This document shows positions 13,433 to 64,000 of a stretch of DNA of 64,000 nt, in pieces. Origin of the DNA: Cyanidioschyzon merolae (Eukaryota). The notes beneath the pieces are model-generated. The model saw nothing but the letters and a program-made list of their open reading frames with translations, was not told the origin of the DNA and searched no databases. The translations under genes were made by a program, and so were the position numbers. The stretch lies in NCBI GenBank assembly GCA_000091205.1, contig AP006494.2. One strand, 5' to 3'. Position 1 is the stretch's first letter. Each line of letters opens with the position of its first letter.

Positions 13433-13474
13433 ACTCGTGGACCGCTAACTGCCGTTTACCTCTACTAGACTCGA

Positions 13475-15490: not shown

Positions 15491-15695
15491 CCGTTCCATT
15501 TTATTCTGGCAAGGATGTAGACAGCTTCGCGCATTATACTTCCAGCGAGATACTGACAAGGCAATGCGGACTACAGGCGACCAGAGCCGCAACCACGCGC
15601 GTCGCGAATACCGCGGGGACTCACTGGCATATAACAAATAGGACAAGGACGCATTTACACATGAGAGAGTGTGCTTCGTTCTGTGCTTGCCGCTT

Positions 15696-23638: not shown

Positions 23639-23749
23639 CGACCGGAGGAATCAAATGAGGCGTAACGTAACGCTGCACCAAGAACGGTGCGCGTAGACAC
23701 ACAGTGTTTAGTAGAACGATGAACATGCTACGACCACGCAGGGTAAATT

Positions 23750-24050
23750 GATGTTCAGACGCAGACGCCTCCCCATCTTTTACGACCGGCCACTGGTATC
23801 AGCTTCTGCTTCTCCTTGCGCAATTCGAGCCTAAGAGGTTTCCCCATAAAGTTCGCTCTTTCCAGCTCCGCGGGTCTCATATTCAGTACTGTACATCGTC
23901 TGACAATGACGGCGGCGTTGAGGTTTCGGTTCAGGAACTTTATGTGTTTCTTACATCTATTAGAGCTCTTCATTGCAAGGAGTTCTCGAACTCGTGCCCT
24001 CTGTGCCAGCAAAGTCTCGTCATCATCCTGGCCGGGAAACACCTTTTTTC
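23750..24050 (-). mobile_element. Degraded fragment of an R3-type unit carrying the TnpB-N-terminal-like block, in inverted orientation
   Basis: Minus-strand ORF 23755-24042 reads '...NAAVIVRRCTVLNMRPAELERANFMGKPLRLELRKEKQKLIPVAGRK'. This is homologous to '...NAPIKIRRYAVLKTRPAELTRANFAGQHPRLEVCKGRLKPTVGGR' but more diverged than the other copies. Confidence 0.45.
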
Positions 24051-24577
24051 TCGCCTATCTCCCATCTTCGTCTCCTTCTTCGTCGTAACATACGCTTCTT
24101 CGCTCTATGGTCGGCGAGAGGAGGATACTATTCGTTTGTTTTCCGGCAGCCGGCGATGATGATCCTCTAGGATCCCCGGCTTTCATGTCCAAACCTTTCC
24201 TTTAGATTTTTTATTCTTTAAAAAGAGACATACATCGAACACGTCAGCCATGAACCCCGAAAAGCACCTGACGATATTCACTTGGGAGTGGGACATAGTT
24301 ATCAAAAATATATAGTTTCAGGCGATTCTGTCCGGTTTCTCTGAAAATCGAAGCGCTCTCGAGATTGCGCACGCGGGGCCAATGCTTCGCCGCGCCTGCA
24401 GTGCATGCTCCTGCTGAACGGTCGCTGCAGGGGTCACGAATGCGCCAGCGCAGCCTAATTGGGACACCAAGCCCTAGAGCTCGTTACGTGCATATACAGT
24501 TCTGTCCATAAATGAACAGGAGCTCGCTCGCCGAGCAATAGTCACGCCAAGCGTGACGCGGCGGATACTGTTCTCGA

Positions 24578-36087: not shown

Positions 36088-37450
36088 CGGCGTCTGCGTG
36101 GTGCACCCACATCGGATTAAGGTGGAACGATGTATTTCGCATCCTGGTCCAGCCTTTCGATTCCCTCCGAACTTTCTTTCTCGGTGTACTGCCTCGGTAT
36201 CCAAATTGCACCATCAAGCGATTACGGATTCTTATGTAACTTTTGGATTCGCTGTCACCCTTTTTCGGAACTGTCTCTTCGATACGTTGCCGCCGGAGTT
36301 CATTACGTCACCGGTATCAAGTTGCTCCATGACACACACGAGGAGAAGTTCGTACACTTCTCCACAGCATTACCTACTTCTCAGGCACAGGAATCCATTC
36401 TTCCGTTTTCCTTGCAAACGGCAAGCTCAAATCACGCTTTCCTCAAGTTTTCGGTGTTTCTGTCTCGGAATATCTCGCAGGTGCAGCAATCGGTGCCGCA
36501 AGACTGACGGGAGCAAGAAATCGATGTCGACCCTTGACGACTTGTTCAATAGCTGAGGCCGGAAGTGCACTGAACTACTCACGCCGAAGAGTCGATTCCG
36601 TTCGAAAGGAAAATCTCCCTCTCTTTGTGGACATCCTCGAAGCGGCACTCGGCAGCAGCATGACGTGGCTCAATGGAACTGCACCCCAGGGCTCTTGTGT
36701 ATTCTGGTTCCATGCCAAAGGGTCTTGGACTCGGACGATGGTCATTGCAGCGATCGCTTCTTCAAGAACGCGCATCACGGATTCGCAGGAAGAGAGCGAA
36801 GACGAATCGTCCTTGCTCGAATTGATCTCCTGTCTGACTATTCCTCCCGGTTCTTTTTCACCATAGACAACATCGCTTTCCACGAATCCCGTATCAAACG
36901 GGACGGCGCGGACCTGCGCATGCCGCGGACAGAGAACTCGCCGATGGCACCTCCTTGAACAGGCTCGTAAGTCTTGGGTACTGCAGTCGGCGCGGAAACG
37001 GCGCTCGATATCGAGGTGACCATGCTGCTCCCGTGATGGGCATTGACTGAGCGCTGAATCAAGAGCTCATATGCGACAGGGCGGCGCTCGGAAGCTGACG
37101 TGTGGAGGAGAGATCGGAGCACCTGCGCACCGTCAAGCGTGATCGCTGCAAATGGCGCTCGTGGGCTCAGTGCAAAGAATGTGACAACGGCAAGTGAGGC
37201 ACTGATCGCGGTCTCCGCATGAACATGAAAAGCGTTCACTTAAGCTGGAAGTAGCGAAATCGAGGCAATAGCGCTGCAATCAATTTTCCTCCGCTGTTTA
37301 GAAGGAGCTGGAGGAAATAGAGAGACCTGCGTATTTCACGCCCAAACCAAGAGAGGCGAAAAGGAAGCATTAGCAGAGAGAGCTCGCCAGGCAGGTGTTG
37401 ATGGCATTGGAAAGAGACTCAAACTTTAGAGTGTGCGCCCGCAGAGGAGG
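36088..37450 (+). repeat. Dispersed repeat family R4, copy a (~1.35 kb). It ends in the 3' terminal module shared with R5 and the TnpB-like element. It occupies the divergent intergenic region between GMP synthase and BCKDH-E1-beta.
   Basis: Near-identical to 56606-57968. Both start 'ctgcgtggtgc[a/t]cccacatcggattaaggtggaacgatgtatttcgcatcc' and both end 'caggtgttgatggcattggaaagagactcaaactttagag[t/g]gtgcgcc'. Small indels near 36930 break the 220-aa ORF that is intact in copy b. Confidence 0.85.
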
Positions 37451-38046
37451 ATCGCTCCCAATTTATTCCAAAATCGCTGGTGGACTCAGAGGATTCTGCG
37501 TAGCGATGTTTCCTTCGCAAATGCAGACAGCGGTCCATCCGATGGCTGTTATCGGAAATCTTTCGTCCTCCTCGAGCCGACCACCATCGGGACATATGCA
37601 AGGTGTCCTTTCTAGATTATGTCTTGAGGCGTTCTGGATCAGGCCCCTGTTCTATCAGTGAACACTGTTCGCTGTTTGGAAGAACACGGAAGTGTCCAAG
37701 TCGGCAATGGGGCCGCCTCCTGCTGCAAGATAGGATCTATGCATCCAAAAGACTTTAGTAAACTGTGATGATCCTCTAACTTAAAGAAAGCTTCTAGGCT
37801 AGCGTTCGTGCTTGCACTTGGGTCTCTTTGTGCTGTCAGGGAGAGCGCAGACGTCCGAAGGACTCGAGTCTCCTGCATCGTCCACTCTCATGAAATTCGC
37901 GGCAATCGCGACATCGCGCGAGTTCCGATCTCCCTGCAAGCATCCTATACCCACCAGGCTACCTGATTGAGGGTTTGCTATTGCTCTTTCTGCACGGGGA
38001 ACGGGTTGAAATATACACCAAAAACGCTGCTTGACTACTGCCAGTA

Positions 38047-46271: not shown

Positions 46272-46683
46272 TCGAGTTCAGCTCCGTCGAACGCTGTCCT
46301 CCGGGGCAGCGCTGACTCGTGCTTCACGTGCTTAAAGCTACAACGCAGACCACAGTTTTACAGTTCAAACTTGTTTACTGCACAGGCCTTTTATCCAGGC
46401 TGCGCGAGTCACTCTAAGGATCTCAGCTTCTGTTGCGATGCAGCTGTCCTTAACTGTCAACCTTTGTTCCCGTTCAAACGGTCTCGGCGTGGGTGCGTAG
46501 CAGGATAACAGCTTGCTTTCACACCGGCCACGGCAATAGTCTCTAGAGATACGTCAAGAACTTCCGCTGCAGTTCAAAACAGATGCCCGCTGATCCCAGT
46601 CACCACTGAAGCAGCAAATCTTTGCTCTGCATAGAAACGCGCTCGCGGAGACAAGGGCTTTTAGTTACGCCATTTGCACTCTA

Positions 46684-47230
46684 CCCCCAGGTGCGTGTCA
46701 TCAAATGCTTTTTCGCTGTTTAGAGCAGACGCGTTCAAACTGCATTCTTTTGAAGAAATAAAAACCCAAGTGAACGGAATTGATATAGAAGTCGGGGATC
46801 CTGGAGTGCCTTCTTTGTCAGTTTCGACAAGAAAATGGCAAAAATTCCTCTTCCCGCCAGCCATCGAGGAAATAAGAGCAAGTGACGAAGGAAAAAAGAA
46901 GAAACAAAGGTGAGCCAGACGAGAAAAAGTGTTCGCCCGACGGGACGATGACGAGACTAATGGCACAGAGGGCGCGAGTTCCAGCAATCCTTGCGATGAT
47001 GAGTTCCACCAGCCGCGATAAATGCAAGCAGTTCGTGGATTGATACTTCAACACTGTTATTAGTATCAAACGTTGCGCGGTTCTGAAGAAGAGACCCGCG
47101 GAGCTGAACCGATCGAACTCTGTGAGGCATCCTCTAAAGCTCGAAGTGTGCAAGGAGAAACTGAAAACGATAGCATAGGATCAGTCACAAAAGTATGGGA
47201 GGCGTCCGCGCGTGGATATTTATTTATCCT
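46684..47230 (+). mobile_element. R3-type unit (5' portion of the TnpB/Fanzor-like family), more diverged
   Basis: It begins 'cccccaggtgcgtgtcatcaaatgctttttcgctgtttagagcagacgcgttcaaactgcattc'. Shared internal blocks: 'ggggatcctggag', 'cgacgggacgatgacgagac', 'gaagagacccgcggagctgaac', 'agctcgaagtgtgcaaggagaaactgaaaacga'. It ends 'gggaggcgtccgcgcgtggatat'. Confidence 0.65.
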
Positions 47231-47549
47231 AGGTGAGGTTGGAACATTTTTCTGTGTCACTGACATGCGTAGTATGCCGAAGCTGTAAACGTAAAAGTAT
47301 TTCGGAAAAATCTCAAGGCAGGAACAGTGCAAGCAGTTTGGTGTTACATTTTAATATTGCGCCTCTATCGTGGCGCGCTCAATTTCCAGAATACATTTAC
47401 GCAACTCAACCGCTGTTTCCAGGTGGAAACCTATTTGGCGTGGAGCACCCGCAGTAACCAACTTGAACTTGCGCGGTCTAGTTTCCGGGGGTGCTTTGCG
47501 TTCCCTCAGTTTGCTTCGCTGCCTTCGAAGCTCGTGCACTGGGTCTTAA

Positions 47550-48203: not shown

Positions 48204-49020
48204 ATACTTTTCTTGGCTTCGCGAGCGTACTACGTACTGTTCATAGCGGCTTCTTGCGGGATCATGGGCCCGGAAAAGGACCGTCAAAGATTCATTTATA
48301 TGCTCCAGCTCCTTTGATGGTGCAAGATCGGTGCTTTGAACCAGAGTCACCCCGGATGTGCGATTGCTGCCGCAACCCTGAACTAGGCCAATGCCCTTCC
48401 TCAAACTTTAATGTGTGCCATTAACCTTGGGCAAGTGTTTTCTCTATGGCGTAAGGGATAGATCTGTTCCAGAGTGTGTCGCTGTGACATACTCCGTTCA
48501 CTTCGATCCTTTACTGCTGTGCTCAGATGGTCGCGAGGCATCATATCTTGCGCTGAATTCACTGCATGTCTAGTGCGATGGCTCGTGCCCGATATAAGTG
48601 GTCGTCCTTTTTTTGGATGTGCAATCACAGGATTAGTTATGTGTGCGGTTGCAGATCTGTTGCTTTCCGCCAGTATAAAAAATCTGCGCGCTTTCCATTT
48701 TCATTCTAAGAGCTGAATACCGATGTTGTCAAGCCTCTCGCAGATTCGACGTAAAGGTTGACAGATGTTTTCGCGTAGCGCTAGCTATATTCGTCTGCTT
48801 CGCATTTGCTGTCCAGGAACTCAATCTGGTACAGTAAAAGAGCGCAGGTACAGTCCCCGTCAAGACGTATGCAACTATCAATTGTATGCCAGATGGTAGG
48901 TGGGTTCTCCGCGTGCGTTTCTGTCTCGAATCGTCTAAGCTATATGACTCATAGGTGGATGCACGCATTCGGTACGAGCGCATGCACCTTGTTTTAGTCT
49001 TTCACCTCAATTGCGTTCCA

Positions 49021-50218
49021 TCCCCAGCCGTGTGTCATCAAATGCTTTTTAGCGATTTGTACCAGATGCATTCAAAGTGCGTTCATCTAAAAAGAATATA
49101 AAACCATGGAAGAGGTATGCACACGGAAATCAGGAATCCTAGAGATTTGTCATCACCGGCTGCCGGCAAACAATGAAAAAATCCTCTCCTCGATGTTACT
49201 CGAGCAAAGACAAGCGAATGAAGAAGAAGATGGTGATGAGGGGATATAGGCGAGAAATCGTGCCTGGACGACGGGATGATGACAAGACTTCGGTTGAACG
49301 GAGGGCACGACTTCGAGGACTCCTTGCAGTGGTGAGTACAATCAGCGGCACAGCAGGCATGGACTTCGTGAAACGAGATTCCAACGCTGCCATCAGTATC
49401 CGACGATATGCTGTTCTGAAGACGAGACCCGAGCAGTTGACGTGATCCGACTTTGTTAGGAGCCTCTTACGCTCGAAGTGTGCAGGGAGAAGCTGAAGCC
49501 CGGAGCACAGTCCTGTCCAAAAAGGCTGGGAAGCGTCCGTGGGTGGATAGTAACGTTCCCGAATCGCTCTCCAGCTTGGATCTTCCTTCCGATACGTGTT
49601 TCCTTGGAGACGATATAATGTACCAGAAATCCTCCATCGAACGGATAGGCGCCCTCTTCATAGTGCAGCGAACAGCGCCTTCGACGAGGTATCGCTCAGA
49701 AGACGCCCGTGATCTTTTTTGGACCGCACCGGGCGCGGAAACGGTGACGGGCACTGCGGAGGGCGTCCTTTGCTCTCCGAGGGCGCGTGCCGAGCGCTGG
49801 TGCGAGCGTTCACGTGACGCATGGCAGGCCTCGGAGGACAATTTGAGATGGAGCTATATGAACACGAGGCCACAGCGAATTGTCATCGATGCGCAAGGCG
49901 CAGCGTGGATAGGCACGAAGAAGATGAAAGAGCCAAGCGAAGCGTGGATCGCGAATAGCGCCGGTGCACGCGATGCGTTGACAACACCCGGAAGGAGCGG
50001 GATTGGGACGTGAGCGCGGCCACATGCATCCTTCGACTGCTGAAAGTGAGGCTGGCACCATATGAGGGACCGGCGCTTCAAATGCTGGAGGTAAGATATA
50101 GGAGAATGATGCAGTCGCGGAAAAATCCCACAAAGGCTGGTGTTGATGCCAGTTGGAAGAGGCCAAAATTTTAGAGCGTGCATCTGAGTTAGAGGGCCAG
50201 TTGTATGTCATTCTGACG
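49021..50218 (+). mobile_element. Composite, internally deleted TnpB/Fanzor-like element: an R3-type 5' unit (49021-~49545) fused directly to an R5 3' unit (~49545-50218) that ends in the shared 3' module
   Basis: The left end is 'ccccagccgtgtgtcatcaaatgctttttagcgatttgtaccagatgcattcaaagtgcgttcatc'. ORF 49173-49445 carries '...AISIRRYAVLKTRPEQLT'. The junction 'aaaaaggctgggaagcgtccgtgggtggatagtaacgttcccgaatcgctctccagcttggatcttcc' joins the R3 tail to the R5 head. The 3' end is 'ggtgttgatgccagttggaagaggccaaaattttagagcgtgcatctgagttagagggccagttgtatgtcattctgacg'. Confidence 0.7.
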
Positions 50219-50383
50219 TGGGTCTAGAGGTCGAGGTCATGAAAAATATGTCTCGCCTGACAAAGACGAGGTCACAGAGCCAGGCTGGCCTCATGCAGAG
50301 CCGCTCCCGAATTCGCCATACTCCCCTTCGATACCAAGTGCTCGTGCGAGGCGGCTACGAGACGCGCCCCATACGTGAGGCGC

Positions 50384-51988
50384 TCATCGGGGTGCTGCGT
50401 CAGGTAGGCGTGGGGTAGCGCACTCCCCGGCGCCGTCATCAGGGTCGTTCTGATGCCGGATGCGGCTGGGGGTGCGCTGCTTTGAAGGAGTCTTCGCGCT
50501 ATTCTGCGCAGCAACGACGAGACATTCCTCGAATATTTCAGCGAAACGCTTGCGAGAGAACCGCACCTGACGCACTTCTGCAAATATGGAAGTAGCAGTT
50601 ACAGTTTCTGGAAGATGCGACAGAGTGTACGCACAGTCCTCAAAATTGCCGCGCAAAAGACAATCCTGCAGCACTCTAAGGATAGCAAGGGCGGCCTTGA
50701 ACAGAAAAGCATCACCGAGAAGAAAAAACGCATCCCATATGCGAAGAGCATCATCCAAGGGAAGCACTCGACAGTAGAGGGACATGATCCAGCTGATGAT
50801 ATACATGTCGGACTCAATTCCTATGGCATCAAAGTGAGCTGCCAGTACGGGATTCTCCGAAAAAACTAGTCTCTGTTGCAGCAAAAGATAAGCCTGCACT
50901 TCGGGATTCTGCATTTTGTAAAATGAGGACAGGCAGCGGGACTTGGAGAGAATGTTCGCAAAGCAACAAAACGCAGTCGGAGCATCTAGATACAGCAATA
51001 GCGCAGCAGCCAGGTAGGACATGCCCTGCGAATACCCGAATTCTGGACGAAAATGGGCGTATGCCTCTAAAAGGCGCCGAAGCTCGCTCTGAAACGGCGA
51101 GCCTTCCGCGTGGAAAAACCCCAGCTGTGGGAAAGTGCGAGGCAGATCGAGAACGATCGCTTTCTGGGCAGCTGGACAAATGCCTCCGTCCATTCGCTCC
51201 TTTTGGTGTGTAAGTAATGTCTCTGCCTCACCACCAGCGCCGCCCAAATCCCCATCTGCTTGGCCGATTGTAGCGTCCTGGTGATGCAACGCACGTCGAG
51301 TCCTTTTCGCTTGTTCGCAAAGGACATCGAACAGACCCGGAGCGATTTGCATAGCATTTCCAATCAACCGAGGCCAGGCTTGTCCGCGGACGTTCGAAGG
51401 TATTCCTTCAAAGATCAGGCTCCGAATGCGTTTCGATTTCAATCGCTTTTCCCAGTTGGGGATGATATCTTGTTCCCATTCTTGTGCTAGTTTTCCCTGG
51501 TACTCTTCCCAGTCCAGTAGCTCTCCGGAAGACTTGAAGGTCCTCAAAACATGCCAGCGTGAGTGATGTGCACTGTTCTGCGACTGCTTTGCACTACCGG
51601 GAGTCGCTGTCCGCTCCGCAAGGGGCTCGGCAGGCTCGCCTCCCCTGAACTGCAACTCGCCGTCCTCGCTTTGCCATAGGCGATTGCGCAGGCGCCTCCA
51701 AACGGAACCTGAGCGAGAGCGCAGCCGTCTAGACGCACTGATCCACCCCACTTCCTCAGTTTCAACGTTTGAGCAGGCGTCATTTCGGAAAAAGTCTGTG
51801 GCGTTCACCACCGTGAAGCCCGAACTCCGCGAGCACTCAGGATCCAACGCTTGTTCCGGGACAGGAATCGGCTCCTCGCCGAGGTCAACCTCGCTCCAAA
51901 AAACAGGTCCCTGCACCTCATTGCGTTGAGCTTCCTTCCCTGAGCCCATATTTCTTTCCGCATCCAGGAGTACCTCCGTAAACAACAC
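50384..51988 (-). CDS. TBC-domain Rab GTPase-activating protein
   Basis: Arg-finger 'IFEGIPSNVRGQAWPRLIG' (IxxDxxR context). Gln-finger 'YSQGMSYLAAALLLYL' (YxQ). The ORF is 534 aa and has the TBC helical core ('...ILRVLQDCLLRGNFEDCAYTL'). Confidence 0.85.
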   Translation of the reverse strand: MLFTEVLLDAERNMGSGKEAQRNEVQGPVFWSEVDLGEEPIPVPEQALDPECSRSSGFTVVNATDFFRNDACSNVETEEVGWISASRRLRSRSGSVWRRLRNRLWQSEDGELQFRGGEPAEPLAERTATPGSAKQSQNSAHHSRWHVLRTFKSSGELLDWEEYQGKLAQEWEQDIIPNWEKRLKSKRIRSLIFEGIPSNVRGQAWPRLIGNAMQIAPGLFDVLCEQAKRTRRALHHQDATIGQADGDLGGAGGEAETLLTHQKERMDGGICPAAQKAIVLDLPRTFPQLGFFHAEGSPFQSELRRLLEAYAHFRPEFGYSQGMSYLAAALLLYLDAPTAFCCFANILSKSRCLSSFYKMQNPEVQAYLLLQQRLVFSENPVLAAHFDAIGIESDMYIISWIMSLYCRVLPLDDALRIWDAFFLLGDAFLFKAALAILRVLQDCLLRGNFEDCAYTLSHLPETVTATSIFAEVRQVRFSRKRFAEIFEECLVVAAQNSAKTPSKQRTPSRIRHQNDPDDGAGECATPRLPDAAPR

Positions 51989-52689
51989 TCATAGGGCACC
52001 CCTGCAGGATATCTGCGAAACCCATGTAAATTAAAATGTAGTATGGAATTGCGCGCTCTGCTCCCGTCTTTCAATTTATTCCAAACACTCTTTACATACG
52101 CAACCTCAACACCACAAGTGCAGCAATAAGGGACCAAGATTCATATGCGCTTTAGGATTCTCGGTTGTCATTTCGTTGCGGATCCTTCGACTCCTTCCCG
52201 CCGGAACTCTTGATGTTAGCGGAATCGTGATGGTTCGTGAAGCCTTCAATCAAGGCTTCGTAAATTAATCGACGTCATGACCCAAATCATAACTAAACGC
52301 CTCCTCGCTTGGCCTTTCCTTACGTATAGCATGCTCACATCGCGCACACTCCAGGCTTTCTATGCCTCTGTTTCAAGGTCAATGGTGCGCGCAGCAATTC
52401 GCACCGCTGGGTTGACGACGGAAAATACCTGACGATGACTGCTGCAGACTTGTTTACGAGCTCGAGCCAAAAGTTCACTGATCGTCTCATGTCATATAAT
52501 CGATTACTTCCGCAACACGACTCCTCCTCTTTTCGTTTCCATCAACGAAACGGCATCCGGCTGTGTCGAGATATCTCCAATGGGTATGCCCCCGGAAACT
52601 CTCGTATCCTCTGTTTGCATCGGGAAGAGCCGTGGAATCCAACTTCGGTCACTGCAGCGGTCGCTGCCAGTGGAGACAGCGCCACGCTT

Positions 52690-53345
52690 TGCACGAAGGG
52701 AGCGTAGATGGGTTCAAATTTCTCGACTGGCTCTCCAGCTTGGATCTTCCTTCCGATACGTGTTTCCTTGGAGACGATATAATGTACCAGAAATCCTCCA
52801 TCGAACGGATAGGCGCCCTCTTCATAGTGCAGCGGACAGCGCCTTCGACGAGGTATCGCTCAGAAGACGCCCGTGATCTTTTTCGGACCGCACCGGGCGC
52901 GGAAACGGTGACGGGCACTGCGGAGGGCGTCCTTTGCTCTCCGAGGGCGCGTGCCGAGCGCTGGTGCGAGCGTTCACGTGACGCATGGCAGGCCTCGGAG
53001 GACAATTTGAGATGGAGCTATATGAACACGAGGCCACAGCGAATTGTCATCGATGCGCAAGGCGCAGCGTGGATAGGCACGAAGAAGATGAAAGAGCCAA
53101 GCGATGCGTCGATCGCGAATAGCGCCGGTGCACGCGATGTGTTGACACCACCCGGAAGGAGCGGGATTGGGACGTGAGCGCGGCCACATGCATCCTTCGA
53201 CTGCTGAAAGTGAGGCTGGCAGCATATGAGGGACCGGCGCTTCAAATGCTGGAGGTAAGATATAGGAGAATGATGCAGTCGCGGAAAAATCCCACAAAGG
53301 CTGGTGTTGATGCCAGTTGGAAGAGGCCAAAATTTTAGAGTGTAT
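52690..53345 (+). mobile_element. R5 copy b: the 3' portion of the TnpB/Fanzor-like family with the shared 3' module. A direct repeat of the R5 part of 49021-50218 across the TBC gene.
   Basis: ORF 52563-53177 is ~97% identical to ORF 49453-50013 ('...SSLDLPSDTCFLGDDIMYQKSSIERIGALFIVQRTAPSTRYRSEDARDLF...RIVIDAQGAAWIGTKKMKEPS...'). The 5' edge 'gggagcgtagatgggttcaaatttctcgactggctctccagcttgg' aligns with 14822-14870 of the 2-kb element. Confidence 0.8.
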
Positions 53346-54084
53346 GCCAGCTTTAGTGGACCTGTTCCATTGTATTTTTACATGAGTGTACTGTACAAGA
53401 ATATCGCATCGGGGTGAGCCGGCGCAACGAAGCTGCATGACGATGTGGCCCGCTTAGCGGATGGAATCCGATAGATGACAACAGAGGGGCCCTCTTCCAT
53501 CGAAAGTGCGCTGCTATGTTGGTTAAATACGATATTCTCTGTTGATTCCGCGACGTACAGCGAAGCGCGCTCAGTATTTTGGAACAAACCCTCAAAGTCG
53601 AACGGGGCTTGTCCACGACCCAGTGCCCGAGACGCGGCTGGGAAGGATTCTGTTGTTTTGGAGAGATTTACATGCTCGCTGCCCGTTCTCTGCAATTGTC
53701 GAGGTTCGAAGACAAGCCGCTTGACTCTTCGCGGCTGAACCTGAAGTTGAGAAATGCCCCTGCGTGCGATGGTCCATTATTTGAATAAATTCCTGCAAAC
53801 AACGCCGAGTCTCCCCATAAAAGTGGAAAAGCAGTTCGGGGTCGAATCACTGGTGCTGTGGCATACGAAATGGACTACGTTGGATAATCTCTTAGGAAGC
53901 TTTTTGGATCCTACTCTAGGCATTCTCAAGTCACTGCGCTCGTGAAAGAAGCGCCAGATTTGTGAACACCAGGCCTAAAACGCAATGCCTGGGAACGCGA
54001 TAACAGTAGAAGCGCGGTTTCTGGTGGCGGATCGTGGGTCACTAAGATGAATCATATTTATCCCTACTTGTACAGATTGTTCAG

Positions 54085-55911
54085 GTGGATTCGTGGCAGC
54101 CGCCAGCACGACGATCTCGAACCGCCAAAACCTGCCAACCTACGACGCTGTCGCACAAGAGACTGGGCACCTTCTCCAACTGCTGGATGGGAAACGTCGG
54201 GAGCTCTGCCAGGCAACGCAGGAGAACAGCCGCCGGTATTCTTGCTGGCAGCCACGAGTCCCAGGCTACTGTTTGTGGTTCGCTGTTCGCGGCTTGCCTC
54301 GGACTCGAGACACGTAGTTCGTTGGGCCACTCGCCTGGACAAGAATGCGGGGCCGGCTCCTCTACACCCAGATTTGCAGACGGCACAAAGATTGAGCGGC
54401 GTCTTGTTGGCAAGTTCACCTCGCCTACGGGCCTTTACTCTCGGGAGCTATGGGACGAGCGGAAGGTCCGGCGGCTGATCTTGCACAATCGCTTAGCACC
54501 ACGTTTCCCGGGTGCAGAGTTCCCTGTTCGAGTGGTCGTAGAAGACGGAGTCAAGCGCATCAATATGGAGGGTAAGGGTCTATGTCCTGAATATATTCAA
54601 CACGAAATGGTTAGTGCGCTGGAAGAGTGCCCGATATGCTTCTTGTACTACCCGTGCTTGAACACAACACTCTGCTGCCACAGGGGAATATGTACGGAAT
54701 GTTTCCTTCAGCTTCGCCCACAGCGAGTCGTTGCCCACACGACAACGTCGTCGTGTCCGTTCTGCAAGCACGAGCTGATGGAGATCGTTTTCCATGGTGC
54801 ACGATCGGAGAAGGAAATGGATCAGCTTTACGAAGAAGAGAGTCGCGTAAGAGAAGCAATGGAACAGGCACGGGCTCGCCAGGAAGCCGAAGCAGCGGAA
54901 CGGAGGCTGGAGCTCAGGAGAATGCGAGTAGAGCACTGTATATCAACGCTGCGGGCCGTTGTGGCTGCCGCAGTCCATGAACGATTCGCACAATGGCTCA
55001 ATTTCGGTGGCGATTCTTTGCATGAAGCGAGCCGTCCGCAATCAGACGCAGATTGGAGAGCGTCTCTTCCAGAACCACCGGAAGACTTGCAAGACTTTAT
55101 GAACATATCGACTGCGCGGAAAAAAATATGTACATCTTTGCGTCGAACAAAATCCAGCCCGGTTATAACGAGTCGGACGGGTATTTCGGATCATATAGAA
55201 CACTCCTATGAGCGCCATCTAGCACTTGCGCAAGCTCACGGATGGCGAGGAAAGGACCCCCTGCACAATCGGACTGGAACGTTCAAATCTGAACAGCCGC
55301 GAGGTGAACCTAATAGCGAGACCCAACCAGCTACATGCAACCATTCTGAACTGCAAATTCTTCCCCTGGAAACGGTACCGAACCAGTACACGAGTTCGCG
55401 ACGACCTTCGCTGTCTTCTCCAGGGGTCTACGCTTCCTCTTCTCTTAATACGGTACCTGATTCGTCTCGTGCCCAAGATTCCGACGTGCTTACGCAGCAG
55501 ATGAGGCGTTTCGCTCCGGATGCTTCACCTGGGCAAGTCGCGATCAGCACTGATCCAGAAAGATGGAACTACAAACGTCGAAGATCAGCACGTTGCGTGA
55601 GCGTCTCCTCGAGCGCGGAACTTCTTTTGACTGTGAATTTGATGTGCCACAATACCTCCGAATCCGGTGCAACAGGAAGGAATCGCAGAAATGAACAGAG
55701 CGATACGTGCGAGCTTCCCGCCAGTGCGTTTTTGCGTCGATGGACTGGATCCAGCCGAGACCTCTACTTTGCCTGGGAACAAGAGGAACTTGCTCTTCTG
55801 CATGATATGGAGGCCAGAGGGCTCTTGGACTGGGCCGAGGAAACTGACATTACTTATGAGGAGCTGCTGCTAATTGAAGCAATCCGTAGAAGTCTCCTGG
55901 GGAACACGTAA
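54085..55911 (+). CDS. RING-finger (C3HC4-type) E3 ubiquitin ligase-like protein with a coiled-coil and a long low-complexity C-terminal region
   Basis: The RING is 'CPICFLYYPCLNTTLCCHRGICTECFLQLRPQRVVAHTTTSSCPFCKHELMEI' (Cys/His spacing C-x2-C...C-x-H-x2-C-x2-C...C-x2-C). It is followed by a coiled-coil 'EEESRVREAMEQARARQEAEAAERRLELRRMRVE'. The start is uncertain; 54085 is the first ATG of the ORF. Confidence 0.7.
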   Translation: MDSWQPPARRSRTAKTCQPTTLSHKRLGTFSNCWMGNVGSSARQRRRTAAGILAGSHESQATVCGSLFAACLGLETRSSLGHSPGQECGAGSSTPRFADGTKIERRLVGKFTSPTGLYSRELWDERKVRRLILHNRLAPRFPGAEFPVRVVVEDGVKRINMEGKGLCPEYIQHEMVSALEECPICFLYYPCLNTTLCCHRGICTECFLQLRPQRVVAHTTTSSCPFCKHELMEIVFHGARSEKEMDQLYEEESRVREAMEQARARQEAEAAERRLELRRMRVEHCISTLRAVVAAAVHERFAQWLNFGGDSLHEASRPQSDADWRASLPEPPEDLQDFMNISTARKKICTSLRRTKSSPVITSRTGISDHIEHSYERHLALAQAHGWRGKDPLHNRTGTFKSEQPRGEPNSETQPATCNHSELQILPLETVPNQYTSSRRPSLSSPGVYASSSLNTVPDSSRAQDSDVLTQQMRRFAPDASPGQVAISTDPERWNYKRRRSARCVSVSSSAELLLTVNLMCHNTSESGATGRNRRNEQSDTCELPASAFLRRWTGSSRDLYFAWEQEELALLHDMEARGLLDWAEETDITYEELLLIEAIRRSLLGNT

Positions 55912-56605: not shown

Positions 56606-57968
56606 AGAAACTCTGCGTGGTGCTCCCACATCGGATTAAGGTGGAACGATGTATTTCGCATCCTGGTCCAGCCTTTCGATTCCCTCCGAACTTTCTTTCT
56701 CGGTGTACTGCCTCGGTATCCAAATTGCACCATCAAGCGATTACGGATTCTTATGTAACTTTTGGATTCGCTGTCACCCTTTTTCGGAACTGTCTCTTCG
56801 ATACGTTGCCGCCGGAGTTCATTACGTCACCGGTATCAAGTTGCTCCATGACACACACGAGGAGAAGTTCGTACACTTCTCCACAGCATTACCTACTTCT
56901 CAGGCACAGGAATCCATTCTTCCGTTTTCCTTGCAAACGGCAAGCTCAAATCACGCTTTCCTCAAGTTTTCGGTGTTTCTGTCTCGGAATATCTCGCAGG
57001 TGCAGCAATCGGTGCCGCAAGACTGACGGGGGCAAGAAATCGATGTCGACCCTTGACGACTTGTTCAATAGCTGAGGCCGGAAGTGCACTGAACTACTCA
57101 CGCCGAAGAGTCGATTCCGTTCGAAAGGAAAATCTCCCTCTCTTTGTGGACATCCTCGAAGCGGCACTCGGCAGCAGCATGACGTGGCTCAATGGAACTG
57201 CACCCCAGGGCTCTTGTGTATTCTGGTTCCATGCCAAAGGGTCTTGGACTCGGACGATGGTCATTGCAGCGATCGCTTCTTCAAGAACGCGCATCACGGA
57301 TTCGCAGGAAGAGAGCGAAGACGAATCGTCCTTGCTCGAATTGATCTCCTGTCTGACTATTCCTCCCGGTTCTTTTTCACCATAGACAACATCGCTTTCC
57401 ACGAATCCCGTATCAAACGGGACGGGCGGACCTGCCATGCCGCGGACAGAGAACTCGCCGATGGCACCTCCTTGAACAGGCTCGTAAGTCTTGGGTACTG
57501 CAGTCGGCGCGAAAACGGCGCTCGATATCGAGGTGACCATGCTGCTCCCGTGATGGGCATTGACTGAGCGCTGAATCAAGAGCTCATATGCGACAGGGCG
57601 GCGCTCGGAAGCTGACGTGTGGAGGAGAGATCGGAGCACCTGCGCACCGTCAAGCGTGATCGCTGCAAATGGCGCTCGTGGGCTCAGTGCAAAGAATGTG
57701 ACAACGGCAAGTGAGGCACTGATCGCGGTCTCCGCATGAACATGAAAAGCGTTCACTTAAGCTGGAAGTAGCGAAATCGAGGCAATAGCGCTGCAATCAA
57801 TTTTCCTCCGCTGTTTAGAAGGAGCTGGAGGAAATAGAGAGACCTGCGTATTTCACGCCCAAACCAAGAGAGGCGAAAAGGAAGCATTAGCAGAGAGAGC
57901 TCGCCAGGCAGGTGTTGATGGCATTGGAAAGAGACTCAAACTTTAGAGGGTGCGCCTGACATAGGTGA
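56606..57968 (+). repeat. Dispersed repeat family R4, copy b; retains a 220-aa minus-strand ORF of unknown meaning
   Basis: See R4 copy a. ORF 57094-57756(-) is intact here but split in copy a. The copy ends with the shared 3' module '...caggcaggtgttgatggcattggaaagagactcaaactttagagggtgcgcc'. Confidence 0.85.
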
Positions 57969-60900
57969 GTTCGTCAGTTCCACTTCATTCCAACACACGT
58001 GTACCGATGTTTTGCTCAGAGCAGTTTTTTAGAACATGCATACCAGTAAACGTTCTTTATTATTGTTTTTCCTCGGAGGCAACCGATGAAAAGAATGTAC
58101 TCTCTAGATTGGAGGGCGCTCGCTCGAAGAATTTGTACCACCACGCAGGCTACTAGTGGACGACCTCACTTATACAAGCTAGTCACTCTGTGTTCAGCAT
58201 GTGCACAAAACATGTTATTCGCAGTCCTTATCCTATAAGATGTGCACCCAAGATAGAGCTCAGCAAGCTCCTTATATATGGCCTCCTACAGATCAATCTA
58301 GTCCATTCTACATGTTCTCTAAGAATATTGGTAGAGTAGCCAAAGGATATGAAATTTGAACACTACTGGTACTAAGGATGATTAAGAGATACGGATGCGT
58401 AAAGAGACAGGATCGCTTTTCAGGAACATCTTCTCGCGTTTAATATCTTTGTACTGGTGTCATTCTGAAACGATAATGTTTATTGCAGCAGACTCTGTTG
58501 CTCGACTCATTGACGAATACTTTGTTCGGGAGAGTCAGTAGAAATGTGAATTGGTAATCCTGAGGGCAACCCGCCTTTAATTATGAAGAGACAATCGATT
58601 AAGGTGACATCATCAGTCGAAATGGCGATTCAGTTGTGTAGTCGCGAAAAAAAAAGCTCGTAATTGTTATGATCGACCAACTCATCCTCCTTTTTCGAAG
58701 CACATGTCATGGGTTCTCCATTCCAGATTGTTCTCCCACATTCTTAGGTAATATCCCTGTCTATAACTTACCACCGGCCAAGAAGTAAGCAGCCACTATT
58801 GGTGTTAAGCTGCTCCTTGTGCCAGCCTATTTTTCTATTTTCAGTCTGGCCGTTGGTGCCTTCTTAGTTGTCGCGTGCTAATACATCGCCCATGATTGAA
58901 TGCACAAGTCTAACTCATCCGTGACAGTTCGCTTCGACGAATCGTTCTTCGAGAGGTTAGTCTCTGCCTAAACCAGCCATGAGCTTCCGGGTTGCTTCTC
59001 TGCTCCTGAGCGGGACTGAGCGAAAGGTGCGCTCTGGTAGTTAGGCCCGCTCGCGATGCAAAAAGTGTCGAAATCTTACGTCAAGACTTGGAGATGTAAA
59101 TATGGAAAAGGCGAGTTTCGATCCCACTGTCTGCTCAGTTCTTCTGAATCCCAGAGCAAAACAAACAGATACTGGGCGAAGCGACCAAAACCATGCCACA
59201 CCGCAAAATAAATTGGAACGCTAAGAAAGAGTTGGTCCCTGAGAGCAATTATGAAGCATCCATTCAACTACTCGAAGAGCAGCGGCGGAGCTCCTTCATG
59301 GTTTCTCCGTTGCACCGAGGAGATGGAAAGCGAATTACAGGCACAGAGAAGACCGACGAAAACGTAGTCTGCATTCACTTCATGGAACCGAGGTCTGAGT
59401 CGAGTAATGAGACTCAGCTGCAACCGTTCAAGGCAGACGAAGAGAAACACTCCAAGGTGAGCGTGGATTCCGAGTTGAAGGGCGTCATGGCCGTCGCCGT
59501 GCCTCAAAATAAAGAGGACGGGACCAAAGACCGTACCGGAATGCAGATGACGCTACTTCATTTCCCAGGGCTCGGTACGATCGACATTCGGGAATCATTC
59601 ACTCCAGAATGGAGAGCGGTGGGTTAAATGATGGCGTCGGGAATGATCTCGACGCTCTGAGCATTGTATGGAGGAGAAGAGGGTGCTTAGCGCAGTTCAT
59701 TCCGAGCGTGGATGAGCGGTCAATATACCATGCGGGTGCGTCTTGACAGGAAAAAAATGAGACCAAGCTGGTGACGCCTACGCGTTCAGATGTACCGAGG
59801 CCAGAACGGTATATTCGTCTCCCAGTGCAGTCAGCTGGAGAAGGAAATGATCGATAAGTCGCGTCGACTCGTACAAGCCTATACCGCTAGATATGCAGTA
59901 CCGCGCTTGGACTGCACTCCTGCTACTTCAGAGGGAGCGTAGAGCGAGTGCCTAAATCGATTTTGTACGCTTCTCGTCGACAGGTTCAGGACGAGCTACA
60001 CGGATCCTGAGCATGTGTGCTCGATGACACAGATAGAATTGCACAGCGTGAATCAGAGATGGTTCCATTATATGTCGCATGGTAGGTCGAACAAATGTAA
60101 GACGAAGAGCAAATAAAAGGTCGGAGGCATTCGCTGCTGTAGTTCCACCAGCAGCAATGCGCTCAAGCGCGTTTTGCGCAGAGACATCAACGACTCGATC
60201 ACGATCCGAAAATGTTTCGTGCTTCTGGAGCGTCCAGTAGCTTTATGTTGAGCGAACTGCCGATGGAATCTTCTAGTGCTCGGTGCGGACACTGAGCAGG
60301 GACGTTGTAGACTAGCGATGGGAAAGTGTATGGCCAAGAGAGAGCATTCGATTCTCGACTCGACGAAGGCACTAGTGTGGTACGGGTCAGCAATCCGGCA
60401 TGGCTCGAGCGCCTTATACACATACATCAGGAGCCCTTTTCATGGGCAATTGGCGATTGATAATGGCGCACCGTAATCCGATAGTGCAGAGTATTCGAAT
60501 GCCGCCAGGAAATGGAGTTTCGATCAAAGCCCCCGCCTATGTTGTTATGGATCTGGACGTCAAGCAGAAACCTTATGAGCTTGCTGACCGTCAGTATTGA
60601 ATCGCCCGCTACCAAGCTGCTTAACTAGAGAGCGTATCCATCGGCGGAACCTAGTGCCTTCTTTTTCAGCGTACGAACAGATCTACGTTGCTTTCTACAT
60701 TGCTTCGGCTACCCGCGGAGCGCAAAAGCGCTTGAGCCCATATGCAGCGCTCCAGGATTTCAGCGGGTGAAAACGCCGCGTTCGTTAGGTACCGAAATAA
60801 AATCTAGTGGCTGAAGTTTCCTCTTCCGTGCGTAACCTCTTCGACCGCAAAACTCAAAAACTCCTTCATTGAAGGCAGGCTACCGCATCCAGCTTGTTCA
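57969..60900. other. ~3-kb island of markedly lower GC content with no long ORFs; compositionally distinct from the rest of the window
   Basis: Visibly A/T-rich. Examples: 'ttttagaacatgcataccagtaaacgttctttattattgtttttcc' and 'ttaatatctttgtactggtgtcattctgaaacgataatgtttattgc'. It begins immediately after R4 copy b. The longest ORF is 144 aa (59193-59627) with no recognisable similarity. Confidence 0.6.
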
Positions 60901-61020: not shown

Positions 61021-62019
61021 TCAAACTTCACGTCCGACAATACTTGCTAAGCGCTCGGCCCAGTTGCTACCGGCCATGTGGGTTACAATCTGTAGCGCAT
61101 TCTGCAGCTTCTCCGTTTCACCCAAACCACCGAGAACAGCACACACGGAGCTAAACTTTTTCAGTAAAAATGCAAGCGCTTTCTTCTCCGAAAAATAGTA
61201 CAATTTAGGTAGTCGTTTGCCGTCGCTATCCTCGCGTTGATTCGTCGCCCCATTGTCGAGGAGCAGCCGCGCGACGACGTCTTCGTGTAGATATTCGAAG
61301 AGCCAGCTCGAATGCTGTAGCGCGTCGACAAATTGAGACCAGGGCTGAGGCGTATCCTCACTAAAGAAGTCCTCTATCGAAGAAAACAGTAACAGGACCG
61401 GATCTTGTGGAACCAAGAGTTGTAAGGAGCCATCTAGAACGGTATACCCAGCGGCAGCGTTGAGTCCGGCCTTGCCATCAAGAGCATTCGAGGACTCTAT
61501 TCGCTCTGCCTGACGACTGCAAACAAGCAACCAGCTGCCTTTCCCCAGCTCAGCTCGATAAAGTCCGAAAAGCCTCCACGGCTTGTCGACTTTATCGTCT
61601 AGCCGAACCTCCCACAGACATACTCGGAATCGCGCTCCTTGTGCAGCTTTCCGTGCTGACGGCAACTGGAGGCAGCGCTCACGAACGATCAAGTTTTGTC
61701 CTTCCAACTCTTTGGGCGTCAGGTATACGCCATATGCCTGGCAGTTCATGAAACAGCCAACAACTCTTGGTGGGTTATCATGCCAGCACACAACAATCCT
61801 ACAGAGTAGTGCCACAGATTCGCTGCTCCGTGGGACAGCTACTACTGAGCGGCATTCAATTCGAGACAAAAATGCCCCTGGAATGATGCGGTGAAGGACG
61901 TGCGGCGCAGACATGTCCCGCCACCGCCCGCGGACGGCGGTCGATGCAGTCGAAGCGCCACATCGTTCAAGATTCGCAGAGTGCGGCTTCCTCAAGAGCG
62001 AAAGCGCTTCGCTGTTCAA
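61021..62019 (-). CDS. RNASEH2B: RNase H2 non-catalytic subunit B-like protein
   Basis: 'LQLLVPQDPVLLLFSSI' resembles human RNASEH2B 'LHFATPVDPLFLLLHYL'. 'LPKLYYFSEKKALAFLLKKFSSVCAVL' resembles '[26 protein letters not shown]'. The length (332 aa) also fits. This is from memory and not verified. Confidence 0.45.
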   Translation of the reverse strand: MNSEALSLLRKPHSANLERCGASTASTAVRGRWRDMSAPHVLHRIIPGAFLSRIECRSVVAVPRSSESVALLCRIVVCWHDNPPRVVGCFMNCQAYGVYLTPKELEGQNLIVRERCLQLPSARKAAQGARFRVCLWEVRLDDKVDKPWRLFGLYRAELGKGSWLLVCSRQAERIESSNALDGKAGLNAAAGYTVLDGSLQLLVPQDPVLLLFSSIEDFFSEDTPQPWSQFVDALQHSSWLFEYLHEDVVARLLLDNGATNQREDSDGKRLPKLYYFSEKKALAFLLKKFSSVCAVLGGLGETEKLQNALQIVTHMAGSNWAERLASIVGREV

Positions 62020-62054
62020 GTTTGGCCTTGCTCCAGCCGAATACTTTCTTCTAC

Positions 62055-62885
62055 ATGGTTCAAGAAGAATACTATTCGGTTGCTAGAGCGTTGCGCTCCG
62101 TACTCGCGAGCGGCACGCTTGACGGAGCGCGCGACTTTCGTTTTCGCTATGGCGAGAGCGCGCTCAGCGTTTGGTACGTGCCGATCCTGACTTGCGTTCT
62201 ATACTATGTTTTTCAGAGAGGAATACAACAATATATGAAAGAAAGGACTGCTCCAAAGCTGAAACAGCTTTTGTTTGTCTATAATATGACGATGAGTTTC
62301 GGCTCGGCTGCTCTTTTTGCGGCTCTTACCAAACTGCTGTGGTCTCGTTGGCAGTCGCTCTCCTTCCACGATATGATATGCTCGAAGCAGATGCACGAGG
62401 ACGGTAGAGTGCAGCTTCTGTACTGGATGAACTACTTCTTTAAGTATATTGAGCTAGCTGATACGCTTTTTCTCGCAATTAGAAAGCGCAAAATAATATT
62501 CCTGCACTCGTACCATCATGCTGCGACGCTGGTGCTGTGCTGGTCTCAGCTAGTGGAGCACTCCGCTGTTCAGTGGGTCGTCATTGATCTGAATTTATTT
62601 GTGCACATCATCATGTACTACTACTATGCGGTATCTGCGCTTGGAATCAAGCCCTGGTGGCGACGTTATCTGACCAAACTGCAAATATCTCAGTTCGTGA
62701 TCGACTTGACTGCCTGCGGCTACGCATACGGCTACTATGTGGTCTACGGTTGGGGGTCCTGTTACGGAACCGTCACGGGGGCTTACATGGGGATCGGAAT
62801 TCTCTTTTCGTATCTCCTGCTTTTCATCAAATTCTATATTGAGACATACAAAGGATCGAAGTCAGCCACGAAACTGAAGGTTTGA
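62055..62885 (+). CDS. ELO: ELO-family fatty-acid elongase (3-ketoacyl-CoA synthase of the ELOVL type)
   Basis: Histidine box 'FLHSYHHAATLVLCWSQL' (HxxHH). 'MYYYYAVSALG' and 'KLQISQFVIDL' lie in typical ELO helices. 7 predicted TM segments. The ORF opens at 61944, but the Met at 62055 avoids overlap with the divergent RNase H2B-like gene and gives a typical 276-aa ELO. Confidence 0.85.
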   Translation: MVQEEYYSVARALRSVLASGTLDGARDFRFRYGESALSVWYVPILTCVLYYVFQRGIQQYMKERTAPKLKQLLFVYNMTMSFGSAALFAALTKLLWSRWQSLSFHDMICSKQMHEDGRVQLLYWMNYFFKYIELADTLFLAIRKRKIIFLHSYHHAATLVLCWSQLVEHSAVQWVVIDLNLFVHIIMYYYYAVSALGIKPWWRRYLTKLQISQFVIDLTACGYAYGYYVVYGWGSCYGTVTGAYMGIGILFSYLLLFIKFYIETYKGSKSATKLKV

Positions 62886-63422
62886 GATGATCGCGTTGCG
62901 ATAGGCTGAGGTGCTCGTTCAAGAGCTACGGCCCGAGACCCCGTGCCCCGCGAACGAATGCTCTCTCGTAGAGTTCTCATGAGAACCGCGGCTGAACTTT
63001 GAGCAATAGTAGCCTAGGCTGTCACCAAAGAAACAATAAACATCGGTAGTTTTCGAATCGTACCCACATACAGCACCTACGTGGCCCAATATGAGAAGTC
63101 GGCGCTGCTGTAGACGCTATCACCGAATACCTGGCTATGAGCCAGTCTAGCAAATCTCACTGTCTGCAACGCAGGCGGCCTGCGCTTTCGTCTTCCCTGA
63201 TTGCAGACGGCTCTCGCGCATTCAGGGTTGGTTTGCTTGAAATTGTAGATCTAAGCCCTAGAATATGTTCTTTTACCGCATGCGCGTATGAAGTGGAGTG
63301 GTCCATCTAGACCGTTCTGGATGCGTGCCGTTCGCCTTCGAACAGGGATCAGTAGGCACGCTCGCTCAGATGCGAAAACGTTTACGCTAGTTCGAAAAGA
63401 AGAAGCAGTCTACACCACGTCA

Positions 63423-64000
63423 GAATGACATACACCTGGCCCTCTAACTCAGACGCACGCTCTAAAATTTTGGCCTCTTCCGACTGGCATCAACACCAGC
63501 CTTTGTGGGATTTTTCCGCGACTGCATCATTCTCCTATATCTTACCTCCAGCATTTGAAGCGCCGGTCCCTCATATGCTGCCAGCCTCACTTTCAGCAGT
63601 CGAAGGATGCATGTGGCCGCGCTCACGTCCCAATCCCGCTCCTTCCGGGTGGTGTCAACACATCGCGTGCACCGGCGCTATTCGCGATCGACGCTTCGCT
63701 TGGCTCTTTCATCTTCTTCGTGCCTATCCACGCTGCGCCTTGCGCATCGATGACAATTCGCTGTGGCCTCGTGTTCATATAGCTCCATCTCAAATTGTTC
63801 TCCGAGGCCTGCCATGCGTCACGTGAACGCTCGCACCAGCGCTCGGCACGCGCCCTCGGAGAGCAAAGGACGCCCTCCGCAGTGCCCGTCACCGTTTCCG
63901 CGCCCGGTGCGGTCCGAAAAAGATCACGGGCGTCTTCTGAGCGATAACTCGTCGAAGGCGCTGTCCGCTGCACTATGAAGAGGGCGCCTATCCGTTCGAT
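63423..64000 (-). mobile_element. R5 copy c in inverted orientation, truncated by the window end
   Basis: The reverse complement of 63425-63500 is 'ggtgttgatgccagtcggaagaggccaaaattttagagcgtgcgtctgagttagagggccaggtgtatgtcat', which matches the 3' module of copy a. ORF 63623-63973(-) is ~97% identical to the R5 ORFs. Confidence 0.8.

Follow-up and report, generated by a model that had tools for sequence, protein, structure and literature searches.

Three loci in a 64,000-nt stretch of nuclear DNA from Cyanidioschyzon merolae 10D (contig AP006494.2, assembly GCA_000091205.1; the whole stretch is called the window here) share a nearly identical segment, R5, which is the 3′ ~670 bp of a repeat family that we named X. 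X elements are non-autonomous DNA transposons of ~1.38 kb, bounded by terminal inverted repeats (TIRs) and with a decayed Fanzor1 gene as their body. The near-identity of the three R5-bearing copies, named A, B and C, probably results from recent local copying between sites within 15 kb and not from transposition of a short element. Such copying would most likely proceed by homology-directed repair, that is, by ectopic gene conversion or by templated synthesis from a paralogous copy. Fanzor nucleases are the relatives of TnpB and Cas12 in eukaryotes, and the spread of their host elements is poorly understood; the genome of C. merolae is very small and contains few repeats.

The window was compared with itself by self-BLAST and by a separate repeat search, which confirmed the identities among A, B and C, and was further compared with metagenome contigs (241 million records). 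Bao & Jurka 2013 (PMC3627910) provided the consensus of the C. merolae element CMe-1A and the sequence of the CMe-1 protein. A and B are 98.2% identical over 624 nt (49556-50179 against 52720-53343), A and the inverted C 98.1% over 586 nt (49636-50221 against 64000-63415), and B and C 99.1% over 544 nt (52800-53343 against 64000-63457). This similarity is far above chance, with E=0 throughout, and bears out the ~97-99% given for the R5 copies in a first-pass annotation of this DNA as 98-99%. The coordinates given there were accurate to within 10-30 nt; the high identity between A and B begins at 49556 and 52720, not at 49545 and 52690. Also sound was the homology of R5 to the 3′ half of a “2-kb element” (14437-15039 against 52313-52914, 65% identical in self-BLAST), the two being collinear through the 3′ end, Zn-finger codons included. 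Relative to that copy at 13.5-15.5 kb, A, B and C are young.

B (52012-53391, plus strand) is a full-length X of 1380 bp, with its R5 part at 52720-53343. C (63408-64000, minus strand) is the 3′ part of an inverted full-length X that runs beyond the window. A metagenome contig, L004, which is 99.0% identical to 52030-52850, joins the 5′ part of X to BAM80779 and BAM80780, the genes next after BAM80778, the last gene in the window; C is therefore a complete copy, and we infer that it extends to about 64787. Alone among the three, A (49556-50229, plus strand) is 5′-truncated: it starts at family position ~695 and continues to the 3′ end with a tail of the C type, and it lacks any X 5′ terminus and 5′ TIR. 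A host RabGAP-TBC gene (50384-51988, minus strand; Pfam PF00566, E=4.8e-49) lies between A and B, outside any element.

Collapsed or cross-polished repeats in the reference assembly are an extremely improbable source of this near-identity. Assemblers do mishandle the R5 repeat, as is shown by another metagenome contig, L002, which links the left flank of A to the right flank of B through a consensus-like R5. Against an artefact, however, each of A, B and C carries private substitutions in the alignment, and two contigs from other samples reproduce the R3/R5 joint on the A side (L003, 99.7%; R3 is described below) and the 5′ part on the C side (L004, 99.0%). We also considered L002 as a natural deletion allele without the TBC gene; a collapsed assembly is no less likely, because the consensus-like R5 of L002 mixes variants of A, B and C.

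The DNA directly upstream of A belongs to a second repeat, R3, which the first-pass annotation had taken for the 5′ end of the 2-kb element. Judged by blastn, R3 is instead a complete short element, a ~540-bp internal-deletion derivative of CMe-1A that is separate from X. CMe-1A is a Fanzor1 element of C. merolae with a consensus of 3169 bp and about 150 copies (Bao & Jurka 2013, Mobile DNA 4:12, PMC3627910), and nucleotide similarity to this consensus, by which membership was assessed, was found for R3 only. Five R3 copies in the window match consensus positions 788/811-969 and 2831-3088 at 67-76% identity, and the same deletion joint is present in 5/5 of them. They lie at 5844-6470 (plus strand; self-BLAST and alignment), 13469-14075 (plus; CMe-1A ~790-966 joined to ~2831-3088 in blastn), 23690-24289 (minus) and 46671-47290 (plus; both by self-BLAST, alignment and CMe-1A blastn), and next to A at 48995-49549 (plus; CMe-1A 788-969 and 2835-3081 in blastn, CMe-1 amino acids 642-717 in tblastn, aligned with the other four). 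The last of these retains the 5′ UTR, the opening ~20 or more codons and the final ~90, among which is the RuvC-III motif KRDSNAAISIRR. The sequence cccccaggtgcgtgtcatcaaatgc that had been read as the left element end is CMe-1A 5′ UTR. Ten more ORF clusters of R3-like or CMe-1A 3′-end type were found in metagenomes. The supposed single 2-kb element thus resolves into two adjoining ones, R3 (13469 to ~14075) and X2 (14139-15522), which has its own TIRs.

Where R3 meets the truncated X (49545-49556, plus strand), A reads TTCCCGAATCG against TTCTCGACTGG in B, a microhomology of ~8/11 nt; A is a 5′-truncated X fused through this short microhomology to an unrelated neighbour, R3. The reading of 49021-50218 as an internal-deletion derivative that unites a 5′ and a 3′ unit holds in so far as 49008-50221 lacks ~830 bp in comparison with 13469-15522, and fails in that R3 and X are different families. 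Transposase-driven movement of a short element is an unlikely source of the identity of A, B and C. In its specific form, with R5 as short, non-autonomous MITE-like elements reduced to the termini of a 2-kb TnpB element and mobilised in trans in recent times, and with 49021-50218 as their prototype, we consider it highly doubtful. The 98-99% identity of three copies and the ~830-bp gap at the joint would agree with it, but a MITE is a discrete short unit with both parental termini and constant ends, and R5 is not: B and C are complete elements, the X 5′ terminus is missing from A, and the R3 of A comes from another family. Furthermore, self-BLAST found no near-identical partner for the R3 of A in the window, and the R3-R5 composite was therefore not copied there. 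The metagenome scan, which is blind to repeats that fail to assemble and missed the 3′ flanks of A and C, yielded R5 from A, B and C only. Compared with MITEs and internal-deletion derivatives in general, R3 fits the pattern with its one joint in all window copies, whereas R5 departs from it, lacking a 5′ TIR and a constant 5′ end and including a single truncated copy.

At least 7 collinear X copies are present in the window and 2 more on metagenome contig L015. Two old full-length copies are X1 (780-2157, minus strand), with a 23-nt TIR that is 74% complementary (786-808 and 2135-2157), and X2 (plus strand), with a perfect 15-nt TIR, 15/15 nt, of the sequence AGAATAAAATGGAAC (14150-14164 and 15493-15507). 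The TIR motif was counted 4 times, where chance would give 0.03, and an HMM of X 3′ tails matches X 5′ ends on the opposite strand, as befits a DNA transposon. Mutual identity among the old copies is only ~65%, and their ends are constant. Two further full-length copies, X3 (36093-37496, plus strand) and its partner X4 (56612-58015, plus strand; self-BLAST and alignments), are 99.6% identical to each other from the 5′ terminus as far as the stop codon (37431). No target-site duplications were recognisable at the ends of X1, X2, X3, X4, B and C, the copies being old and their ends approximate.

Several other arrangements of X were examined and discarded. Homology of the X termini to the 3′ end of R3 and CMe-1A was dropped, because an HMM built from the 3′ ends of six R3 sequences matched no X terminus. 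A model of X as a shell with an inserted interior found neither empty shells nor solo TIR motifs in the window and fits poorly with X3 and X4, the 5′ identity boundary of which is the element end. X follows a CMe-1A 3′ end at X1, X2 and A but not at the two copies on L015, and this position may reflect chance within a repeat cluster. For a conserved RNA structure near the 3′ end of X, as expected of the guide (omega) RNA associated with a Fanzor gene, no support was obtained: RNAalifold on five X copies gave an unfavourable covariation term of +1.64, neutrally decayed copies having little power in this analysis, and no Rfam match was obtained for the region.

The origin of X from a TnpB-like gene, as proposed in the first-pass annotation, is borne out by its coding remains. 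The C-terminal Fanzor1 motif is [TS][TS]-x-x-C4 zinc finger-x(5,50)-RD (Bao & Jurka 2013, PMC3627910), and the X consensus translates to ...EHLSTVKCYRC...CRLC...NRDxSAAINI...ERP, containing S-T-V-K-CxxC...CxxC...N-R-D-x-S-A-A-I-N-I. In BLASTP the consensus peptide matches the Chlamydomonas Fanzor1 protein CRe-1, its best alignment partner, at 28% over 125 amino acids (E=4e-6); its match to Pfam PF07282 is under threshold (E=0.035). X2 encodes a degenerate Fanzor1 C-terminus (ORF 15086-15370), and the frame of R5 itself reads ATANCHRC...CTRC...RDWDVSAATCIL with an in-frame stop. All X copies carry stops and frameshifts, none has an intact ORF with a complete split RuvC, upstream catalytic D included, and no RuvC-I motif was recognisable in the X 5′ half; X carries a pseudogene and not a functional Fanzor. 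Among 5.8 billion proteins no intact X-type protein was found, just two further pseudo-ORFs. Neither the R5 Zn-finger frame, searched against proteins, nor single-copy peptides, searched against Pfam, gave a match, and exact look-up recovered 0/10 of the ORFs inside R5 from the protein collection. Of four window ORFs close to the repeats, checked for contigs that encode them, three had no record and one was found on one short metagenome contig. The scanned part of the ORFs in the window included no recognisable transposase.

X and CMe-1A inhabit the same genome as old, diverged repeat families and have a C-terminal motif in common, which reads NRDxNAAINI in CMe-1A. Yet no X copy, R5 included, matched CMe-1A or CMe-1 in blastn or tblastn, and the BLASTP match of the X consensus peptide to CMe-1 is limited to 30 amino acids around the RD motif. 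The finger of X is of the canonical CxxC...CxxC form and X elements bear TIRs, whereas CMe-1A was described as lacking TIRs (PMC3627910). By these comparisons X is distinct from the published family.

The origin of the near-identity we infer from where identity stops. In their interior B and C differ at ~9 positions in ~1290 nt (~99.3% identity), whereas their first ~40 nt and their tails past the stop codon (53344-53391 in B) are only ~60-80% identical; the 3′ identity ends at the stop codon of the gene, ~50 bp (about 48 nt) before the terminus. Identity between X3 and X4 falls to ~63% at the equivalent stop codon. The tails of A and C, in turn, agree up to ~8 nt from the 3′ terminus. Diverged termini around a 99% identical interior are the opposite of what end-to-end transposition produces. 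A similar mosaic is seen in R3, where the copy at 5844 and that at 13469 (13683-13986) are 93% identical in the 3′ half and only ~62% in the 5′ half. Partners in the R5, X3/X4 and two-R3 groups are spaced 3-20 kb apart, and two more 99% duplicate pairs in the window have partners at 7.5-11.6 kb. These boundaries and this spacing fit local homology-directed copying better than a MITE-like burst. The local restriction of R5 holds for the window and the metagenome contigs, and near-identical copies on other chromosomes are possible.

Recent transposition of full-length X, with a TIR transposase acting in trans by local hopping, could also have produced B, C and X3/X4, with A as a 5′-truncated insertion or a later deletion and with the ends diverging afterwards; we regard this as possible, though rather unlikely. 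The TIRs and constant ends of old copies agree with it, and three observations that speak for it also weigh against local copying or recall known Fanzor1 families: the X3/X4 tract starts at the exact 5′ terminus, the tail common to A and C runs almost to the end, and variable 5′ and conserved 3′ parts occur in CRe-1 and MCi-2 (PMC3627910). However, transposition needs its termini conserved, and B and C differ by ~20-40% at both ends against 0.7% inside and the X3/X4 tails by ~37%; neither target-site duplications, an intact X-type Fanzor nor, among the ORFs scanned, a transposase was found, and all young partners lie at most 20 kb away. Local copying resembles ectopic gene conversion between dispersed repeats in that tracts end inside repeats, flanks are unrelated and partners are near each other on one chromosome. 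It differs in that the tracts of two pairs end at the same element position, and in that the partners were perhaps too dissimilar beforehand for efficient conversion: old X copies are ~65% identical, and conversion would be inefficient if the recipients held such copies.

Because in two independent pairs (B against A/C, X3 against X4) the stop codon of the Fanzor gene marks the end of identity and the resident tail beyond it is unaltered, nuclease-triggered homing may also be envisaged, in which a complex of Fanzor and guide RNA from an intact family member elsewhere would cut resident copies near the 3′ end and repair would copy the interior of a paralogue. We consider it very improbable; if true, it would be TnpB-style copy maintenance between paralogous sites in a eukaryote.

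Among known Fanzor1 elements, CRe-1/2/3 of Chlamydomonas and MCi-2 of Mucor have a conserved 3′ part and a variable or truncated 5′ part (PMC3627910). Their near-identical Fanzor-encoding 3′ regions with differing 5′ regions resemble A in comparison with B and C. In contrast, these families comprise tens to hundreds of young copies with intact expressed genes, whereas R5 consists of three young local copies with a dead gene and diverged termini.

A single Fanzor1 family was listed for C. merolae in 2013 (PMC3627910). The alga has at least one Fanzor1-derived family beyond that listing, the TIR-bearing X, and CMe-1A gave rise to a short deletion derivative, R3, that multiplied. For the rest the locus is ordinary repeat biology, apart from one caution: dead copies may look “young” when their interiors are re-copied between neighbouring sites, and high identity among Fanzor and TnpB repeats is by itself no proof of recent mobility.

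The repeat R5, a sequence of ~625-670 nt, was found by self-BLAST and repeat search in three copies in the window: A at 49556-50221 (+), B with its R5 part at 52720-53343 (+) and C with its R5 part at 63415-64000 (-), where the window end cuts the copy. With pairwise identities of 98.1-99.1%, these are the near-identical copies that the first-pass annotation had described, with start points 10-30 nt off. Its proposed homology to the 3′ half of a "2-kb element", Zn-finger region included, held as well: R5 aligns collinearly, at ~65% identity, with the 3′ portion of the 14.1-15.5 kb copy, including the codons of the CxxC...CxxC finger and the RD...AA motif. Translated comparisons and a multiple alignment placed R5 in the 3′ half of a larger repeat of ~1.38 kb that we named X, comprising X1 (780-2157, -), X2 (14139-15522, +), X3 (36093-37496, +), X4 (56612-58015, +), the whole of B (52012-53391, +), the collinear members A and C, and two more old copies on an unrelated contig (L015).

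X2 ends in a perfect terminal inverted repeat (TIR) of 15 nt and X1 in one of 23 nt with 74% complementarity; the terminal repeat motif occurred 4 times against 0.03 expected by chance, and the best non-self matches of a 3′-tail model were the opposite-strand 5′ ends of X2, X4 and X3. Target-site duplications of X were not found, no Rfam family matched, and RNA structure in the 3′ region lacked covariation support. Stops occur throughout every copy, and the majority consensus restores the frame …KPVIFWYG…PVKGMYRALK…VVEIWEHLSTVKCYRC…CRLC…NRDxSAAINILRL…ERPAYL, ending in TAG. The consensus peptide matched the C-terminus of the Chlamydomonas Fanzor1 CRe-1 (28% over 125 aa, E=4e-6), CMe-1, the protein of the C. 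merolae Fanzor1 family CMe-1A, around the RD motif only, and Pfam PF07282 below threshold (E=0.035). In the window comparison X matched neither the published CMe-1A consensus nor CMe-1, and no intact relative was present among 5.8 billion proteins. The CRe-1 match, the TIRs, the stops in all copies and the lack of an intact relative together make X a second Fanzor1-derived family, TIR-bearing and dead.

CMe-1A is the one C. merolae Fanzor1 family described, with a consensus of 3169 bp, about 150 copies ~80% identical to it and a protein of 734 aa (Bao & Jurka 2013, PMC3627910); consensus and protein were taken from the supplementary files of that study. All copies of the 5′ unit R3 match this consensus at ~790/811-966 and then at ~2831-3088, so that each copy fuses a 5′ segment, with the 5′ UTR, the start codon and roughly the first 20 or more codons (MEKEVEDPGGPVSPAAGKK...), to a 3′ segment made up of the final ~90 codons (…FVNRDFNAAINIRRCAVLEKRPPELTR…) and the 3′ end. 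The "2-kb element" (13469-15522), read earlier as a single TnpB-like element, is thus R3 followed ~65 nt downstream by X2, and the motif proposed as its left end sits within the CMe-1A 5′ UTR. The deletion joint is common to 5/5 window copies, and an R3 peptide profile matched, on other metagenome contigs, ten further clusters of similarly short ORFs and no long protein; R3 is therefore a CMe-1A deletion derivative that was amplified after the deletion. In the copy at 24289-23690 (-) the deletion looks in-frame, placing the C-terminal ~110 aa directly after the lysine-rich CMe-1 N-terminus, which may be a nuclear localisation signal, so the founder may have coded for a mini-protein of ~170 aa; the frame is now broken in all copies seen. 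Between the R3 copies at 5844 and 13469, the 5′ halves are 62% and the 3′ halves 93% identical. At 2769-780 (-), 13469-15522 (+) and 48995-50229 (+), a CMe-1A-type 3′ end is closely followed by an X copy of like orientation, with spacers of ~150, ~65 and 0 nt, respectively; the two L015 copies lack this arrangement, and no homology of R3 3′ ends to X termini was found.

B extends 5′ past the A/B identity boundary and is collinear with X1, X2 and X3 to its 5′ terminus at ~52012. Metagenome contig L004 has lipoate synthase and CSL4 genes ahead of an X-like stretch that matches 52030-52850 at 99.0% identity; since these genes are BAM80779 and BAM80780 and the last window gene (61944-62885) is BAM80778, L004 continues the window beyond 64000, which makes C a full-length X in inverted orientation. 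The portrayal of R5 as short elements retaining only their termini thus applies to neither B nor C. A is the sole short copy of the three, starting at X position ~695, directly 3′ of a ~540-nt R3 unit with microhomology at 8/11 nt of the junction. Of the proposal that 49021-50218 is a 5′+3′ deletion derivative, the abutment of R3 and R5 stands, but R3 derives from CMe-1A and A lacks the X 5′ TIR.

The identity between young copies is mosaic. B and C differ by about nine mismatches over ~1290 nt of the interior, but are only ~65-80% identical in the first ~40 nt and only ~60% in the 48-nt tail past the stop codon (following …AAATTTTAG AG). In X3 and X4, 99.6% identity sets in right at the 5′ terminus and lasts up to the same stop codon boundary, followed by tails ~63% identical, and the tail of C recurs in A with about 2 mismatches/~46 nt, up to a point ~8 nt short of the end. 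Flanks are unrelated, and partners lie 3-20 kb apart in every analysed group, as they do in two additional window duplications with 99% identity; under random scatter over the 16.5-Mb C. merolae genome, such clustering would be very unlikely. Because tracts end inside elements, termini have diverged, flanks are unrelated, partners are local and X lacks coding potential, we infer that local copying between members of X, dependent on homology and proceeding by gene conversion or templated repair synthesis, gave rise to the young copies; in this scheme A would be a templated, 5′-truncated copy captured beside R3 through microhomology. The old copies, only ~65% identical, would be a poor conversion substrate, and the X3/X4 tract beginning exactly at the element end and the tail common to A and C favour true transposition with local hopping, a rival that we consider less likely. 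Recent trans-mobilisation of MITE-like short elements, as first suggested for R5, is highly improbable given the internal tract ends, diverged termini and local partners.

R5-spanning peptides returned three loci from 241 million metagenome records, all mapping to A, B or C. L003 holds the left flank of A and terminates 131 nt into R5, the point at which L004, on the C side, also terminates. L002 (JGI24721J44947_10079375) runs from the left flank of A through R5 into the tail and right flank of B, joining 48879-50179 to 53344-54437 via one R5 without 3164 bp that include the RabGAP-TBC gene. Its R5 has the majority base at almost every A/B/C variable site, so it is probably a collapsed assembly; alternatively, it may be a natural allele with a deletion from one direct repeat (A) to the other (B). 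This census of metagenome records, incomplete because repeats break assemblies, gave no indication that R5 forms a dispersed family.

Six long window ORFs are identical to annotated C. merolae 10D proteins (BAM80761 to BAM80776) of one 859,119-bp chromosome and have Pfam domains of ordinary host functions; the window is nearly intron-free red-algal nuclear genome, neither virus nor prokaryote. Fanzor-derived repeats are unusually dense here for this genome: the 64 kb contain, with single-copy host genes in between, at least 7 copies of X, 5 of R3, 2 CMe-1A 3′ fragments and 3 further remnants of Fanzor1-like type. The pair 6451-8128/18083-19760 (1678 bp, 99.8% identical, 11.6 kb apart) holds a third Fanzor1-like pseudogene on the minus strand (6681-7622/18313-19254), which aligns to CMe-1 aa 372-698 at 27% aa identity and contains ...DINAFISIRRCAELPKRPAGL. 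The pair 2383-3760/9926-11300 (1378 bp, 99.3% identical, 7.5 kb apart) carries a longer CMe-1A 3′ fragment (aa 600-723, minus strand), and its part 3156-3705 is ~70% similar to 31800-32342. A degenerate Fanzor1-like coding remnant at 59226-60257 (+) aligns to CMe-1 aa 335-696 with 28% aa identity (tblastn E=1e-26) and, at the level tested, is unrelated to X. A DEAD-box helicase ORF (11648-13432) carries at its 3′ end a run of 18-nt tandem repeats (13244-13441) encoding (RPGPGA)n.

Fanzor1-derived repeats in C. merolae have already been published (PMC3627910), and the published Fanzor1 families CRe-1 and MCi-2 are conserved in their 3′ regions and ragged in their 5′ regions. What is new is that X is recognised as a family of its own with TIRs, that R3 is read as a deletion derivative that has been amplified, and that homogenisation is mosaic; all of this lies within known repeat biology.
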